Shown: positions 1,003-7,413 of the stretch, piece by piece
Layout: each line of letters opens with the position of its first letter
Numbering within the stretch: position 1 is the stretch's first letter
Assembly (NCBI GenBank): GCA_048940925.1
Contig: JBHLOC010000069.1
Location: forward strand, 1 to 14,260
Length of the DNA stretch: 14,260 bases
Direction of reading: 5' to 3'
Source: Promethearchaeota archaeon
Lineage (GTDB): Archaea; Asgardarchaeota; Lokiarchaeia; Sigyniarchaeales; SOKP01
Made by a program: the position numbers and the translations under genes
The notes under the pieces: model-generated
What the model saw: the letters and a program-made list of their open reading frames with translations, nothing else
Database searches by the model: none
Told to the model about the DNA's origin: nothing

Positions 1003-2076
1003 GTGATAGAATTGGACCTTAAATTTGGAATGGAACTTGGAACAAATAGTTCCATGATTATGATGAAAACTGAGACTTATATGAGAACCATTAAGTATAT
1101 AGATAAAATGGGATATGATTCGTTATTTCTCATGGATCATTTAAACCATATACCTCCCCGAGCAGAAATCCCAAGTTGTAATGTATTATTAGGCTGGGCT
1201 GCAGCAGAAACTAAGAACATTGATATAGGCTCCAGTGTAACCGATCCACATAGAAGACATCCAGCTCAAATTGCATTAGATTCTCTAACAATTCAAAAAA
1301 TCATAAAGAATCGTTTTATTTTAGGAATTGGTGCAGGAGAGGGGATGAATCTAATTAATTTCGGGATTCAATGGGATAAACCAGCTAAAAGACTTAAAGA
1401 AGCTGTTGAAGTAATAAAATTATTATGGAATACTTCTCAAAAGCGAAATTTAACCATAGATTACTCCGGTGAATTTTTTAATTTAAAGAATGCTAAACTA
1501 CAATATCCAACTAAAGTGTTACCCAAATTATGGCTTGGCGCTAATAGTCCAAGATTGATTGAATTTTCCGGAGAACAAGCTGATGGTTGGGTACCTATAA
1601 ATTATAACCCAAAACTCTATGAAAAACACTTGAAACTGTTGAAAAAAGCAGGTAGAATTAATGAGATTGAAAAGGCTTGTGAAATTTTTGTTTTTATTAG
1701 TGATGAAGATCCTAATAAAGCACACGAAGTTGGACGTAAAGTCGGTGCTTCATTATGCTTCATTCCAGAATTACTCGAGGATTATAACATAAAGATTCCA
1801 AAAGAATATAATTCACATCAAGTATTTAAACTGCCAATGGCAGAATTATTTACATATACGGATAAATTAAGAGAATATGCTTTAGAAAATATTCCAGAAA
1901 AAGTTATAGATTCAGTAATTATAGCAGGCTCTTCAGAGGAAATTATAGAACAAATAAGTGAATTTGTGAATGTCGGTGCTGAATACTTCATTGTTGAGCT
2001 TTTTGGTCTTGGGGAATATTTTAATGCATTAGAGCTATTTACGAAAAATATTTTTAAGTATTTTAAGGATTTGTAG
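1003..2076 (+). CDS. LLM-class (luciferase-like) oxidoreductase, probably F420-dependent (Mer/FGD/Adf-like)
   Basis: Motifs GYDSLFLMDH, VTDPHRRHPAQIA, RFILGIGAGEGMN, RLKEAVEVIKLLW, YSGEFF, ADGW and IAGSSEEIIEQI are typical of the LLM TIM barrel. The true start may be TTG at 1012 (MDLKFG), with GTGA upstream as a SD-like site. Confidence 0.9.
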   Translation: MIELDLKFGMELGTNSSMIMMKTETYMRTIKYIDKMGYDSLFLMDHLNHIPPRAEIPSCNVLLGWAAAETKNIDIGSSVTDPHRRHPAQIALDSLTIQKIIKNRFILGIGAGEGMNLINFGIQWDKPAKRLKEAVEVIKLLWNTSQKRNLTIDYSGEFFNLKNAKLQYPTKVLPKLWLGANSPRLIEFSGEQADGWVPINYNPKLYEKHLKLLKKAGRINEIEKACEIFVFISDEDPNKAHEVGRKVGASLCFIPELLEDYNIKIPKEYNSHQVFKLPMAELFTYTDKLREYALENIPEKVIDSVIIAGSSEEIIEQISEFVNVGAEYFIVELFGLGEYFNALELFTKNIFKYFKDL

Positions 2077-2180
2077 AAGGAAATAATTTAATTATAATTA
2101 TAGGTTATTTATAACCTTAAATTTAAAAATATTTTATTAAAGAATAATCCTGTTTTAATAATAAAATATGTAAAAGTTTT

Positions 2181-2200
2181 AAAAAAAAAAAAGAGAAAGA
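2181..2200 (-). terminator. Oligo-T/pyrimidine tract, candidate archaeal terminator for NMO paralogue A
   Basis: The minus strand reads TCTTTCTC followed by T12, about 10-30 nt after the stop at 2211. Confidence 0.5.
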
Positions 2201-2210
2201 GCTAATAGAA

Positions 2211-3290
2211 TCATTCTACGACTTTTATTGCATTTTTTAATGCTTTTTCTGCATCTTTGATAATCGTTTCAATGATATCTGAAACACTCTCGATTTGATT
2301 TATGATTCCTATACTCTGCCCTAATAGCACATAACCATTATCAACATCACCTTGATAGGCTAAAAGATAAGCCAATCCCTCCCTCCTTAACTCTTCGGCA
2401 AGTTCTTCCTTAGATATGGCAGCTCGATGTTCTTCCCTTGCTTTTTCCTCCGCAATCTTTTCTTCTTTACTTTTTACTAATCCTTTTGTCAGAGAAAATT
2501 TGTTCCTCCATAGTCTAATGGTTCCTAGACCTCCCGTTCTTACAATAGTATCTTGAGCTTTAGCAGGAGGTACTACGTTTTTATAATTTTCATGAAATTC
2601 ACTATCTTTAGATGCGATAAATCTTGATCCCATTGCAATTCCTCCTGCACCAAGAGCTAAAGCTGCAGCCATACCTGCTCCAGTTGCAAATCCTCCACAC
2701 GCAATTTTAGGAATATCTGGATGTTTTTGCTGTACTTGCTGTAATAGTACTAAACCCCCAACTTTTTCATAAGATTGGTGGCCTCCACCTTCAAAACCTG
2801 TTACCACAAGCCCGTCACATCCCGCTTCAACACATTTATCTGCTAACCAAAGCGCAGGAGCGACATGGAAATGCTTAACTTGTGTGTTTTCTCTTAATTT
2901 TTGGAAATCTTTATTCTGAGGAATTCTCCTTGCAGAACCCGCACTCGAGAGTACATATAAGCATTGCTCTCTCAATTTAGGATTTCCCATTATATGCTTT
3001 GAAGTTTCTGAGATCAATTTATCGCAATCTACTGTAAGTCTTGAAGTTCTTACGTTGAAACCAAAAATTCCATCAGTATGCTCAACCACATAATCAAGGT
3101 TTTTTTTCATTGCAACTAACGCAGATGTTTCACTCCCATCCATAGATTGGTTAGCATGAGAGATCATGCCAAGACCACCAGCTTCTGAGACCGCTATTGC
3201 CAATTCGGTTGTCCTGAAAGGACCCATCGCAGCACTTGCAATAGGATGCTTAATTCCAAACATTTCAGTAATATTAGTTTTAATTGTCAA
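2211..3290 (-). CDS. Nitronate monooxygenase / FabK-like FMN-dependent oxidoreductase, paralogue A
   Basis: MFGIKHPI, LAIAVSEAGGLGMI, GFEGGGH (catalytic His region), IACGGF, ALGAGGIAMGSRFIAS..SEFH and GQSIGII are present. TTG start with GGTGA 6 nt upstream. Confidence 0.92.
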   Translation of the reverse strand: MTIKTNITEMFGIKHPIASAAMGPFRTTELAIAVSEAGGLGMISHANQSMDGSETSALVAMKKNLDYVVEHTDGIFGFNVRTSRLTVDCDKLISETSKHIMGNPKLREQCLYVLSSAGSARRIPQNKDFQKLRENTQVKHFHVAPALWLADKCVEAGCDGLVVTGFEGGGHQSYEKVGGLVLLQQVQQKHPDIPKIACGGFATGAGMAAALALGAGGIAMGSRFIASKDSEFHENYKNVVPPAKAQDTIVRTGGLGTIRLWRNKFSLTKGLVKSKEEKIAEEKAREEHRAAISKEELAEELRREGLAYLLAYQGDVDNGYVLLGQSIGIINQIESVSDIIETIIKDAEKALKNAIKVVE

Positions 3291-3295
3291 AATCC

Positions 3296-3304
3296 ATCAC
3301 CTTC
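3296..3304 (-). promoter_or_regulatory. Shine-Dalgarno GAAGGTGAT for NMO paralogue A
   Basis: GGTGA (3297-3301) lies 6 nt before the TTG. An identical site precedes paralogue B at 4746-4750. Confidence 0.8.
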
Positions 3305-3357
3305 AATTTAATTTTGTGTAAAAAAATAGTTTTGTATTTTAATTGTTAGTTTTCATA

Positions 3358-3389
3358 TTATATATTTTCTTCTATCTTATTAGATAAAA
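3358..3389 (-). promoter_or_regulatory. Candidate proximal BRE-TATA promoter with an adjacent palindrome
   Basis: The minus strand reads AGAAAA-TATATAA at 3370-3358, about 70 nt before the TTG. The inverted repeat TATCT-tatt-AGATA (3373-3386) lies just upstream of the BRE. Identical at 4807-4838. Confidence 0.55.
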
Positions 3390-3487
3390 CTAAATTATGC
3401 TTTGAAATATGTGTCTAAAAAGAAATCCGAACTGAATCCAGTTATTAAATTCATCATAATCTATATTTTATTTTGTTTAAATTGTCA

Positions 3488-3535
3488 TTATTTCTTTTTG
3501 CTTGAAGAAGCGGTAATAATAGTTTTTATTGTCAA
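3488..3535 (-). other. 15-aa mini-ORF MTIKTIITASSSKKK copying the NMO N-terminus (leader peptide or gene remnant)
   Basis: TTG ACA ATA AAA ACT ATT ATT ACC...AAA TAA. It is preceded by GAAGGTGAT with the same 6-nt spacing as the real gene start 245 nt downstream. Confidence 0.6.
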
Positions 3536-3570
3536 ATTATATCACCTTCTATTCTAATTGAATTTCTAAC

Positions 3571-3585
3571 TAAATAAAACTTTCC
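3571..3585 (-). promoter_or_regulatory. Candidate distal BRE-TATA upstream of the mini-ORF (copy 1)
   Basis: The minus strand reads GGAAAG-TTTTATTTA about 36 nt before the mini-ORF TTG. The positional equivalent in copy 2 is GAAAAT-CTTATATT at 5034-5021. Confidence 0.45.
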
Positions 3586-3631
3586 TTAAAAGACCATTTA
3601 TTCTTCAGATATAAACTAGTGAATATTAGTT

Positions 3632-3640
3632 AAAAAAAAA
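3632..3640 (-). terminator. T9 tract, candidate terminator for NMO paralogue B
   Basis: Nine T on the minus strand, 20 nt after the stop at 3660. Confidence 0.45.
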
Positions 3641-3659
3641 TTGGAAATTGAAAATATAA

Positions 3660-4739
3660 TTAGACCACGTATGTTACTGCTTTTTTTAATGATTTTTCAG
3701 TATCTTTTATAATCGTTTCGATAATATCAGAAACGCTCTCAAGTTGGTTCACTATTCCTATACTTTGTCCTAATAACACTGATCCATTATCCATATCCCC
3801 TTCATATGCTGCAAAAGCGGCAATTGCATCTTTTCTTAATTCGTCAGCAAGTTCTTCTTTAGATATTGAAGATCGAAATTCTTCTTTTGCTTTTTCTTCA
3901 GCCATTTTTTCTTCTTTAGTTTTTACTAATCCTTTTGCTAAGGCGTATTTGTTCCTCCATAGTCTTATAGTTCCCAGAGCTCCTGTTCTCACAATAGTAT
4001 CTTGAGCTTTAGCAGGTGGCACTACATTTTTGTAGTTTTCATGAAATTCACTATCATGAGAAGCGATAAATCTTGATCCCATTGCAATTCCTCCTGCTCC
4101 GAGAGCTAGAGCTGCAGCCATACCCATACCGGTTGCAAATCCTCCACACGCAATTTTTGGAATATCTGGATATGTTTGCTGTACTTGTTGTAATAATACC
4201 AAACCACCAACTTTTTCATATGATTGGTGACCTCCTCCTTCAAAACCTGTTACCACAAGGCCGTCACATCCCGCATCAACACATTTGCCTGCTAACCAAA
4301 GCGCAGGGGCAACATGGAAATGCTTAATCTGTGTGTTTTCCCTTAATTTTTGGAAATCTTTGTTCTCAGGCATTCTTCGTGCTGAACCCGCACTGGTGAG
4401 TGCATACAAGCATTGCTCTCTCAACTTAGGATTTCCCATTATATGCTTTGAAGTTTCTGATATCAATTTGTCACAATCAACAGTAAGTCTCGAGGTTCTG
4501 ATATTAAATCCAAAAATTCCATCAGTATGCTCAACTACATAATCAAGGTTTTTTTTCATTGCAATTATTGTAGTTGCTTCCCTCCCATCCATAGATACGT
4601 TAGCATGAGAGATCATGCCAAGGCCACCGGCTTCTGAGACCGCTACTGCCAATTCAGTTGTCCTGAAAGGACCCATAGCGGCACTCGCGATTGGATGTTT
4701 AATTCCAAACATTTCAGTAATATTAGTTTTAATTGTCAA
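3660..4739 (-). CDS. Nitronate monooxygenase / FabK-like FMN-dependent oxidoreductase, paralogue B
   Basis: Same motifs and same length (359 aa) as 2211..3290. About 50 aa differences by manual count (about 86% identity). Confidence 0.92.
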   Translation of the reverse strand: MTIKTNITEMFGIKHPIASAAMGPFRTTELAVAVSEAGGLGMISHANVSMDGREATTIIAMKKNLDYVVEHTDGIFGFNIRTSRLTVDCDKLISETSKHIMGNPKLREQCLYALTSAGSARRMPENKDFQKLRENTQIKHFHVAPALWLAGKCVDAGCDGLVVTGFEGGGHQSYEKVGGLVLLQQVQQTYPDIPKIACGGFATGMGMAAALALGAGGIAMGSRFIASHDSEFHENYKNVVPPAKAQDTIVRTGALGTIRLWRNKYALAKGLVKTKEEKMAEEKAKEEFRSSISKEELADELRKDAIAAFAAYEGDMDNGSVLLGQSIGIVNQLESVSDIIETIIKDTEKSLKKAVTYVV

Positions 4740-4987
4740 AATCCATCACCTTCAATTTAATTTTGTGTAAAAAAATAGTTTTGTATTTTAATTGTTAGTT
4801 TTCATATTATATATTTTCTTCTATCTTATTAGATAAAACTAAATTATGCTTTGAAATATGTGTCTAAGAAGAAATCCGAACTGAATCCAGTTATTAAATT
4901 CATCATAATCTATATTTTATTTTGTTTAAATTGTCATTATTTATTTTTACTTGAAGAAGTGGTAATAATAGTTTTTATTGTCAAATT
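4699..4987. repeat. 289-bp direct repeat, copy 2
   Basis: 285/289 identical to 3250..3538. Confidence 0.95.
4937..4984 (-). other. 15-aa mini-ORF MTIKTIITTSSSKNK (copy 2)
   Basis: Same frame and length as 3488..3535. The upstream SD is degenerate (GAAAGTGTT instead of GAAGGTGAT). Confidence 0.5.
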
Positions 4988-5085
4988 CTAACACTTTCTA
5001 TTCATATGGATTTAGTAACAAATATAAGATTTTCTTTTTTAATTTTTTTTATAAGCCAAATTGTTTAAAGATTGCAAAATAAAAT

Positions 5086-6489
5086 TTAGCTATATTTAAT
5101 TACCTTCCATGGTTTTTTGGACCAATAAAGCAACACTCCGTTTTTCTCTGTTTTTTGTACTTTATTCTGAAATTCTAAGTAATCCAAATGAACTAAAGTT
5201 TCACTAACTGCAAGGATTTTATTCATCTGGTCCAAATCATCTCCGAAATGTTTAAGAGCAATCTGTAGGGGAGGCATTGGATTATTTTCAATGATTTTAG
5301 ATATCTCATAAAGACGATTCTGGTGGTGATTTTTAAGTGCTGTTATTCGTTTATGTGGATCGTAAATGATTTGTTCGTGTCCAGGTAGTATTATTTTGGA
5401 ATTCAATTTATCAATGCGATCTAGAGATCTAAGATAGTGTTCTAAGATATTTTCATAGTTATTTTTTTTATTAAATTCAATTGCACCTGGAATTGTAAGA
5501 GTGCCCAAGTGGGGTGTAATTTTACTTAATATGTGGTCTCCTGAGAATATTATTCCCTTTTTTGGGTAATAGACACAGATATGACCTACTGAATGACCTG
5601 GAGAATGTATAATTTGTAATTCACCATCTATAATTCTATCATTATCATTAAGCAATACATCGGGTTCAATATATCCAAATCTCGTCGATCCTGTACTAAA
5701 CCGTTGTATTATAAAATCAAGTTCTTTCTTGTCGAGTCCATATCTAATTAGTAATTCTCCCCTTGCTTTTGCCATTTTTTCTAAATTATCCTTGCTATAT
5801 AGATCTAATCTTAATTTGGCAAGTTCATGGGCAATTTTGTGCAAACATATTTTTACTTCTGGATTTGCTCTTTTTAAATCAGTTACAAGACCTGTATGAT
5901 CTGGATGCTCGTGAGTAATTATACAATAATCAATATTTTCAAAGTTTATATTTAATTCATTTAATGCTTTATAAAAAGCCTTTTTCCAATATTGCATAGA
6001 ATGCCCTGCATCAATTAGGACAAGATTATCTTTTATATCAAAAAGGTATAAGCTTATAATATTAGAGAAACCAACGTTTATCTGATTGATGTTCTCTAAC
6101 TTAAATACGTTATAATATTCAAAGTCTATTAAGTTTCTTATTTTTGATATAAAGCTTTCAAAATCATCATAATTTTTAACAGCTTTACCCAATTGAGGAT
6201 AATCATTCATTAAAGGATATTTGATTATATTATTAAAGAAATTTTTAAAAGAATCACCGTATTCCAAAAAAGATTCACTGAGATCGTGAGACGACCAAAA
6301 GAAATGTTGAATCATTTCTTCTGGAATCCTTATCCTTTTAGAAGCGTGTTTAATGAATTTTCTGATCGAGGTTTGGGGAGTAAATTTGATGAATTCTTGA
6401 AAAATAATATTCTTTTTTTTAGGATCTAAATTGAATATTTTTATTAATATCTTTAAATCTTCTTTGGGTATCTCAATTTCTCTTCTCAT
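5086..6489 (-). CDS. MBL-fold metallo-hydrolase with a C-terminal winged-helix-like tail and an approximately 125-aa N-terminal extension
   Basis: LVLIDAG, THEHPDH (HxHxDH), HSPGHSVGH, FSGDH and ILPGH metal-binding motifs. C-terminal AVSETLVHLDYL helix. Confidence 0.9.
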   Translation of the reverse strand: MRREIEIPKEDLKILIKIFNLDPKKKNIIFQEFIKFTPQTSIRKFIKHASKRIRIPEEMIQHFFWSSHDLSESFLEYGDSFKNFFNNIIKYPLMNDYPQLGKAVKNYDDFESFISKIRNLIDFEYYNVFKLENINQINVGFSNIISLYLFDIKDNLVLIDAGHSMQYWKKAFYKALNELNINFENIDYCIITHEHPDHTGLVTDLKRANPEVKICLHKIAHELAKLRLDLYSKDNLEKMAKARGELLIRYGLDKKELDFIIQRFSTGSTRFGYIEPDVLLNDNDRIIDGELQIIHSPGHSVGHICVYYPKKGIIFSGDHILSKITPHLGTLTIPGAIEFNKKNNYENILEHYLRSLDRIDKLNSKIILPGHEQIIYDPHKRITALKNHHQNRLYEISKIIENNPMPPLQIALKHFGDDLDQMNKILAVSETLVHLDYLEFQNKVQKTEKNGVLLYWSKKPWKVIKYS

Positions 6490-6537
6490 ATAAAAATCAT
6501 TAAGACTTATTTTGTATATAGATGTACGAAATTTTTG

Positions 6538-7413
6538 TTATGAAATTAGGTCTCTTCCATCAAATATTGGTTCCATTTCTAATTGGTTGGCTTTTATTTG
6601 CATTTCCTCCTCACGAGGACCACTTTTAAAGCGACTAGCAGCATCGAGTATTTTAGGTAAGAGATGAATATCAGAACTTGAATTGAGAAATATTCCTTCC
6701 TTATTTAAAACCCAATGAACTGCGCAGTCAATATCTGCTTGATCTTCAAAAGGTTCATACCATGTAGTCCGAATTCTTTCCTTATCACCCCAAGGACGGC
6801 GTGCAAGAGACTTTATTGTCTGTACTGCTACATTACGATCTTTACATAATTTTAAGAGATTTTCAAAATCCTTAGCATAAATAGGATTTTGTATCATCAT
6901 ATAGTTATAAGGTAATAGAACAGAGTCAAACTCAAAACGTTCCAAACTCTGAATGTGCATTGCAGCTACAGTATATCCATGACCCGTCACCCCTATATAT
7001 TTTACAAATCCTTGTTCGCGGGCTTCAATTAGAGCTTTCAAAGCCCCATTAGGTCCCATTACTTCTTTCCAGCTTCTTGGATTTGTCAAATTATGAATTT
7101 GTATTAAATCTATAAAAGAAACCTGCAATCTTTTGAGTGAAGCTTCTATTTGATCACGAGCATCTTGATAAGAACGCTTAAAAACTTTTGTGGCAAGGAA
7201 AAATTTATTACGGTATTTCTTCATCCAAGGACCAATTCGTAATTCTGATTCTCCATAGCCAGCAGCTGTGTCAATATGGTTAACTCCATATTTTAAAAGG
7301 ATCTCGAGTGTTGTATCCGCTTCCTCTTGAGTTACATCACTCAAAGCAGCTGCTCCAAAAATAACGCGTGTACTCAAATGTTCTGTATTACCAAATTTTT
7401 GTTTAACAATCAT
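6538..7413 (-). CDS. Aldo/keto reductase family oxidoreductase
   Basis: [15 protein letters not shown] (catalytic Asp/Tyr), FLATK (Lys), [16 protein letters not shown] (His) and [11 protein letters not shown]. Confidence 0.93.

Follow-up and report, generated by a model that had tools for sequence, protein, structure and literature searches.

The stretch analysed here (the window) is an entire contig of 14,260 nt (C9; JBHLOC010000069.1) from a metagenome-assembled genome (MAG) of a Promethearchaeota archaeon, a short-read assembly of 4.8 Mb in 90 contigs with an estimated contamination of 8.4%. It carries two tandem genes of the nitronate monooxygenase (NMO) family, each preceded by an AT-rich leader of 248 nt. 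We found that the two leaders are almost identical although the genes behind them have diverged, that the leader is an insertion peculiar to this lineage, and that it was probably passed from one paralogue to the other by gene conversion. The genes, the shared tract and the repeat units lie as follows, numbered along the window:

2211..3290, minus strand: NMO paralogue A, 359 aa, nitronate monooxygenase / flavin mononucleotide (FMN) oxidoreductase family (open reading frame (ORF) list and Pfam)
3660..4739, minus strand: NMO paralogue B, 359 aa (ORF list and Pfam)
3250..3538, minus strand: near-identical tract, copy A (4/289 differences from copy B)
4699..4987, minus strand: near-identical tract, copy B (4/289 differences from copy A)
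2183-3631 and 3632-5080, minus strand: two tandem 1449-nt units (homology detectable over about 2183-3590 in each, in copy-A numbering)

Both genes are assigned to the NMO family by full-length matches to PF03060 (133.7 and 134.9 bits against a gathering score of 28; profile positions 2-330/331), the match of paralogue A having E = 1e-38. Paralogue A starts with a TTG at 3290-3288 behind a Shine-Dalgarno (SD) sequence, GGTGAT, at 3301-3296, and its N-terminus MTIKTNITEMFG agrees with that of all homologues; in paralogue B the TTG lies at 4739-4737 and the SD at 4750-4745. A luciferase-like oxidoreductase gene flanks the pair on one side, and genes for a metallo-beta-lactamase-fold protein and an aldo/keto reductase on the other. 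The coding sequences (CDSs) differ at 154 of 1080 nt (36, 19 and 99 at the first, second and third codon positions) and the proteins at 50 of 359 residues (86% identity), which bears out the divergence of about 14% given by an earlier note on this DNA. Nei-Gojobori estimates for the pair are pS 0.39, dS 0.55 and dN 0.075.

The tract contrasts sharply with these values. Recounted at the fixed offset of 1449 nt, which is also the length of the repeat unit proposed in the earlier note, its two copies differ at 3419 (A/G, copy A first), 3494 (C/A), 3500 (G/A) and 3511 (C/T), so that the note's figure of 4 in 289 nt and its placement of 248 nt upstream of the TTG start were both upheld. The copy-A tract consists of 41 nt from the beginning of the CDS, the SD, a 199-nt filler and the 3' part of a fossil gene start described below. 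Only the difference at 3419 falls within 3250-3493, and the longest identical run measures 169 nt. The nearest mismatches beyond the tract are at 3249 and 3539, and homology continues on both sides: proximally through the CDS at about 87% identity, distally through the fossil start and a promoter cassette, where the copies, as the note had seen, remain alignable yet diverged, at about 40% mismatch from 3539 outwards until homology fades near 3590. The comparison of synonymous with leader divergence that the note had called for gives a dS of 0.55 in the genes against about 1.4% in the leader.

Such a distribution of differences is not expected by chance. When the 185 mismatches of the 1408-nt unit were placed randomly in 20,000 permutations, the longest identical run was 99 nt and none reached 169 nt, nor did any stretch of at least 289 nt carry four or fewer mismatches; an analytic estimate puts the chance of the observed tract at about 1e-8. 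The duplicated unit itself takes in only about 28 nt of 3' flank (3632-3659 versus 2183-2210), and the units are separated by some 40 nt of unique spacer (3590-3631).

An insertion within a conserved gene start

The organisation of the leader became legible through comparison with relatives. Our congener set comprised 53 Asgard (Loki-type) genomes, one per species, and was supplemented by 16 genomes of the same order, by 80 metagenome loci and by 35 homologues of this NMO subfamily on metagenome contigs. Close homologues comprised 18 genes with 78-87% protein identity from 15 congeneric species, and from these 18 orthologues we built two profiles, one of the promoter only and one of promoter plus start. 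The elements recognised in this way, and one small ORF, are:

3266..3311, minus strand: S, working SD, TTG and first 8 codons (proximal repeat arm), copy A (profile match)
4715-4760, minus strand: S equivalent, copy B (profile match)
3312..3510, minus strand: X, 199-nt AT-rich filler, copy A (without homologue)
4761-4959, minus strand: X equivalent, copy B (the second genomic copy)
3511..3556, minus strand: S', fossil SD, TTG and first 8 codons of the ancestral start, copy A (alignment of orthologue starts)
4960-5005, minus strand: S' equivalent, copy B (SD core lost)
3550..3593, minus strand: ancestral promoter cassette, copy A, intact (promoter-only profile)
4999..5036, minus strand: ancestral promoter cassette, copy B, decayed (promoter-plus-start profile and comparison with congener G067)
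3395-3457: sense 20-aa ORF in the leader

All 18 congener homologues carry the cassette immediately before the start codon. It consists of a BRE-like (B recognition element) A-rich word, a TATA-like TTTTATTTA or a T-run variant of it, the near-invariant AATTCAATTAGAAT, the SD AGGTGA and a TTG or ATG, after which the protein begins with MT(I/L)KTNITEMFG. On metagenome contigs the cassette likewise stands at the start of 28/35 homologues (26 full and 2 partial, profile positions 33-101); two of the remaining homologues have the SD/start part only, and five, the more distant ones, have none. A duplicated start was found in none of the 18 congener and none of the 35 metagenomic homologues. Between species, the cassette is conserved at least as well as the coding sequence (window 3550-3593; loci L016-L032 and L138-L166), and the invariant word between TATA box and SD could be an operator or an element of the 5' untranslated region (5'UTR).

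In the window, the promoter-plus-start profile recovers two separate places for each gene. At the working start it matches S alone (3311-3264 and 4760-4713, E = 6.5e-10), and there only with profile positions 55-102, which lack the promoter. The complete arrangement of copy A lies further upstream, where cassette and S' are matched together over 3594-3511 with E = 3.8e-18. This distal cassette contains a BRE-like AAGGAAAG (3587-3580), a TATA-like TTTTATTTA (3579-3571) and the conserved AATTCAATTAGAAT, and agrees with the orthologues in 38/40 strongly conserved columns. The promoter-only profile finds it at 3593-3550 with E = 1.3e-8 as its sole significant match in the 4.8-Mb genome, so that the intact cassette occurs there only once. 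S' of copy A follows with the SD GGTGAT (3546-3541) and a TTG (3535-3533), and departs from all orthologues at about 3511, after codon 8. S and S' are identical at 37/46 positions and thus form an imperfect direct repeat of 46 nt.

Relatives have the cassette at the gene, whereas here it stands 245 nt upstream of the working start, with a second SD and start in between. The leader is therefore an insertion specific to this lineage, and a 46-nt duplication of the gene start flanks it. Initiation of translation is expected at the proximal TTG, which follows GGTGAT at a distance of five bases. The fossil start of copy A opens a mini-ORF of 15 codons (3535-3488; MTIKTIITASSSKKK and stop), whose equivalent in copy B lies at 4984-4937. 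Three differences separate the two mini-ORFs, one synonymous and two that change the peptide (A to T and K to N). The 248-nt leader has a GC content of about 21%, and its filler includes a T7 run (3326-3320) and TATA-like AT boxes.

The distal region of copy B is less well preserved. Its cassette scores 1.5 bits (E = 6) with the promoter-only profile and is recognised by the promoter-plus-start profile (E = 5.6e-9); the TATA region is altered, and the SD core AGGTG, retained in all 18 orthologues and in copy A, reads AAGTG, which is unique among the 20 sequences. It is orthologous to the working cassette of congener G067, with which it has particular words in common. In G002, another congener with a tandem NMO pair, there is no insertion and the upstream regions of the two genes have diverged in the ordinary way. 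The G002 genes lie 121 nt apart, and the wider spacing in the present genome is due entirely to the insertion.

The interior of the leader has no counterpart outside this locus. Within its own genome it occurs twice, in the two copies described here; a sensitive blastn search of the filler against the whole genome gave, besides these, chance AT-rich matches only, and the leader was not found before the seven other NMO-family matches of this genome. The filler interior had no real match in the 53 congeners or the 16 same-order genomes and was not found in the 80 metagenome loci, and exact 32-mer and 22-mer words of it gave no hit in 185,579 species genomes and a metagenome contig collection, from both of which near-identical records may be missing. 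The expectations that the tract might precede other NMO paralogues or unrelated genes, or be conserved in related MAGs, were thus disappointed, and what the earlier note had presented as conserved non-coding DNA is young and lineage-specific instead. Local alignment of the filler to the 5' region and the remainder of the gene, to the cassette and to the 3' flank gave z < 1.4 throughout, and Tandem Repeats Finder detected nothing in the filler, so it is no tandem array. Two further candidates were discarded. A third, mini-copy of TGACAAT in the leader was matched equally well by 73/1000 shuffles and is not significant; a second promoter cassette inside the insert, about 62% similar by eye, was not found by the promoter-only profile.

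Both leader copies are real

An exact repeat of this kind in a short-read MAG raises the suspicion that assembly produced it, either by homogenising two leaders through bubble popping or repeat collapse, or by joining two strain alleles in tandem. The suspicion is fed by the contamination estimate, by a 169-nt exact repeat that is longer than typical k-mer sizes, and by the fact that no single public contig among those mapped spans the whole 3.3 kb. Parts of the stretch are present in public sequencing runs from six studies (sediment, mangrove), among which no RNA run is listed, and we mapped Logan contigs from four runs of three studies (X1, X5, X9 and X11) on 2000-5300. The passage from leader to the cassette of copy A is bridged by contigs of X5 (3264-3554) and X11 (3331-3610), that from this cassette to the 3' end of gene B by X1 (3464-4057) and X5 (3525-3842), that from gene B to its leader by X11 (4548-4767), and that from the leader to the upstream flank of B by X1 (4913-5300) and X11 (4934-5222). 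All four leader junctions are thus bridged by contigs of three independent studies.

The shared leader contig is about 1.6-1.8 times as deep as its flanks (22.1 versus 12-14.5 in X1; 5.9 versus 3-4.4 in X9). A depth about twice that of the flanks, and not higher, fits two copies and not a collapsed repeat of many copies, and together with the bridged junctions it establishes a tandem pair with two leaders rather than a chimeric assembly. The junction 3539-3659, moreover, joins the 3' flank of a gene to a promoter cassette, which is impossible from two alleles of one gene; gene copies 14% diverged would share no k-mers and hence could not collapse; and tandem NMO pairs exist in G002 and G062 too. 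We therefore regard an artefact of assembly, including the misassembly or collapsed repeat against which the earlier note had warned, as very improbable.

The same contigs bear on variation within the leader. At 3419, the X5 and X11 contigs have G, the copy-B letter. The leader is represented in X1 by one contig of 244 nt, which crosses 3419 at about twice the flank depth and so fits two copies identical over that length. This X1 contig differs from the window at 4778, 4781 and 4785 (equivalent to 3329, 3332 and 3336), and the contigs flanking it are identical to the window; the cluster is either a strain variant present in both copies, which would suggest ongoing homogenisation, or an error in a low-complexity AT run.

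Probable gene conversion and competing explanations

We consider the leader to be a young, species-specific insertion at the 5' end of an NMO gene, recently copied between the tandem paralogues by gene conversion, with a probability of about 0.75. Since the genes and outer flanks are diverged (dS about 0.55), the leader differs by about 1.4% and no other lineage has it, recombination between the copies is required. An insertion that preceded the split of A and B must have been homogenised since, and one that followed it must have been copied from one to the other. The requirement would lapse only if each single base of this unstructured sequence of 21% GC were constrained more strongly than ribosomal RNA (rRNA). 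Among the explanations put forward in the earlier note, recent gene conversion homogenising the control region is the one that agrees with the data, with 4/289 differences against a dS of 0.55 and an interior confined to this lineage. The process itself is ordinary and no sign of a conserved regulatory RNA.

The comparisons show that the ancestral order was promoter, SD, start and gene. They also show that a filler of 199 nt was inserted after codon 8 and 46 nt of the start region duplicated, displacing the old promoter, SD and start by 245 nt; the second SD, TTG and eight codons became the working start and left the old one as a fossil. Subsequently, a non-reciprocal recombination (gene conversion or, equivalently, unequal exchange) most likely moved a tract of 244-289 nt including the insertion, served on one side by the diverged but homologous start and promoter and on the other by the homologous coding sequence. 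The three differences within 3494-3511, and a gradient of divergence at the 5' end of the CDS, suggest that there were earlier exchanges that ended elsewhere. The decayed fossil SD of B and the intact cassette of A weakly suggest that the transfer ran from B to A. Alternatively, A may still use the old promoter, with B being read through from the same-strand genes upstream (5086-7413).

The age of the insertion can be bounded by synteny. G067 is syntenic over the whole window at 79-92% protein identity, with the order aminoacyl-tRNA synthetase, methyltransferase, two small ORFs, NAD synthase, orf492, NMO, luciferase-like gene and end gene; it has one NMO gene, whose cassette sits directly at the start without a leader. 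G049 and G064 also have a single NMO gene each at the syntenic locus. A maximum-likelihood tree of 20 coding sequences joins B with the G067 gene as sisters (97/92; p-distance of the CDSs 0.127) and sets A apart. Taken together, the sister position of B and the leaderless gene of G067 make the insertion younger than the split between B and G067. Over the first 360 nt of the CDS (the 5' third), A and B group together with a support of 85, and over the final 150 nt the distance of B from G067 is 0.153 and from A 0.253, the sequences nearest to A being those of G049 and G019. A mosaic of this kind is what repeated exchange with a 5' bias would yield, and it points weakly to older exchanges within the coding region as well.

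Several observations weigh against this account. The approximately unbiased (AU) test does not reject a clade of A and B (p = 0.21 for the full CDS, 0.18-0.29 for 3' partitions), for which reason we treat the phylogenetic discordance as suggestive and do not rest the case on the tree. No genome with the leader in one copy only was found among the genomes (one per species), metagenome contigs and loci searched, and consequently we infer both the single origin of the insertion and the direction of its transfer. The cassette of copy B matches 34/40 conserved columns, inside the orthologue range of 30-40, so its decay is argued mainly from the lost SD core and the low profile score. Bubble popping during short-read assembly could conceal a few real differences within the tract.

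That the insertion is an adaptive new 5' control module acquired by one Asgard species, and that conversion is spreading it between NMO paralogues for its advantage, is a proposal we consider unlikely. Under it, the fossil start may act as a decoy or regulatory mini-ORF, and the T7 run or a new TATA box may rewire transcription; if true, the locus would offer a rare snapshot of an archaeal gene gaining a new promoter and leader architecture. Quite unlikely, in our judgement, is a functional cis-regulatory RNA, a small RNA or a long 5'UTR with a regulatory mini-ORF kept identical by purifying selection on nearly every base, the constrained cassette or RNA of the earlier note. The identity of the tract is indeed extreme beside the synonymous sites, and in copy A the promoter, the SD and the 15-codon mini-ORF are all intact. 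Yet copy B has lost the SD of the mini-ORF and two of its three differences alter the peptide, the interior is conserved in no relative searched, an outcome that the earlier note had itself named as refuting, and holding more than 200 unstructured AT-rich bases invariant at a dS of 0.55 needs a constraint stronger than that on rRNA. A scan of 2000-5200 against Rfam gave no match at E <= 1. Folding of the sense strand is slightly more stable than that of shuffled sequence (z = -1.27), but 20/200 sense shuffles and 147/200 antisense shuffles (z = +0.61) fold equally well or better, so that folding is not significant; two near-identical copies leave covariation unassessable. An antisense small protein (51 aa, truncated to 47 aa in B) was rejected, as it lacks an SD and has neither a Pfam hit nor credible relatives in 54 genomes. 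A scan for sigma-70 promoters and intrinsic terminators, a bacterial model and thus the wrong one for an archaeon, returned promoter-like sites at the shuffle rate and no terminators.

The direct repeats invite a different explanation, namely two independent insertions of an element with a specific target site, or an integrative element of which a remnant is left and whose attachment site resembles the NMO start; the 46-nt repeats would then be comparable to attL and attR, and the gene would be restored by the copy of its start that the element carried. In favour of this, the insert lies between direct repeats that consist of target sequence (37/46 identical), and its position agrees exactly between the two paralogues; identical breakpoints are, however, predicted equally by one insertion copied through conversion. 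An element targeted to NMO starts, as the earlier note had also envisaged, would have been expected elsewhere, but the two copies at this locus are the only ones in 4.8 Mb, with none before the seven other NMO-family matches and none in the other genomes or metagenome contigs searched. No inverted repeat pairs the ends of the insert, Pfam reveals no integrase or transposase in the window, and 46 nt far exceeds the target duplications made by transposases, all of which renders the proposal improbable. Hardly credible is an intron that the tRNA-splicing endonuclease would cut out of the mRNA, rejoining the fossil start to the gene. Excising exactly 245 nt would restore an orthologue-like gene, but bulge-helix-bulge candidates at the junctions occur at the shuffle rate (22 versus 21.4; 23 versus 17.9) and none removes the homologous 245 nt in both copies. 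Splicing is also unneeded, given a strong SD and TTG before an intact ORF, and the fossil SD of copy B is destroyed.

Some features of the gene family and the surrounding locus may be recorded here. The NMO family is strongly expanded in this Asgard genus: the present genome has nine matches (on contigs C9, C39, C84 and others), and its relatives reach as many as 11. Further tandem pairs are found in G002 (C25) and G062 (C27); G044 (C23) and G024 (C2) have such pairs too, of lower identity. Two homologues of G069 (C7:123563-124633 and C9:73015-74076) contain one in-frame TAG each in an otherwise full-length match. The TAG could be a sequencing error or be read through, or the gene could be a pseudogene. 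Within the conserved synteny, the segment between orf492 and NMO is a variable slot: in the window (5086-7413) it holds the aldo/keto reductase and metallo-beta-lactamase-fold genes, in G067 (L054 7205-8897) one unrelated ORF of 343 aa, and in G049 (L055 8950-10902) and G064 (L056 5582-7477) an SDR-like ORF and an ORF of 226-251 aa.

Significance and comparison with known systems

The locus carries a caution for comparative work: non-coding identity above that of the neighbouring genes can mimic constraint and yet mark a young insertion homogenised by recombination. It further indicates that homologous recombination is at work between tandem paralogues of an uncultured Asgard archaeon of the Loki type, within a gene family that reaches up to 11 copies per genome. 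The insertion has left an unusually legible intermediate: the gene start has moved by 245 nt, and its former promoter, SD and start persist as a fossil. Comparison of the orthologues also defines a strongly conserved, subfamily-specific archaeal promoter/5'UTR cassette usable in studies of Asgard transcription signals.

Gene conversion between duplicates is familiar from tufA and tufB in bacteria. The present case shares with tufA/tufB and with rRNA operons a within-genome identity of duplicates far above the divergence between species, produced by recombination. Those loci differ in being highly expressed, strongly constrained and dispersed, whereas here an unconstrained leader is concerned, at one of nine NMO-family matches in an uncultured archaeon. 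Homogenisation of rRNA operons has been described, with rates for E. coli rrn (PMC8022953), and gene conversion between paralogues has been surveyed across prokaryotes (PMC6053082).

Copy A also resembles the upstream ORFs and leader peptides of bacterial and archaeal attenuators, in that an SD-led ORF of 15 codons precedes the main start by about 200 nt on the same strand. Unlike these, the mini-ORF is a truncated old start that has lost its SD in copy B and whose peptide differs between the copies, and no terminator or antiterminator structure is predicted.

Among archaea, gene conversion between tandem paralogues is documented for mtrA-1 and mtrA-2 of Methanococcales and Methanomicrobiales (PMC4632066). 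In both cases old tandem paralogues hold one segment near-identical by non-reciprocal recombination as the rest diverges, and the borders of the tract fall within flanking homology. Here, by comparison, hardly any of the tract is coding, and it is made up of an insertion specific to this lineage. The history looks like a single very recent event, or a few such events, in place of a long-lasting homogenisation of a protein domain, and tree-based proof is weak, as the AU result shows. Measured against known conversion, the only unusual aspect of this locus is that the homogenised segment is itself a structural novelty, absent from all orthologues.

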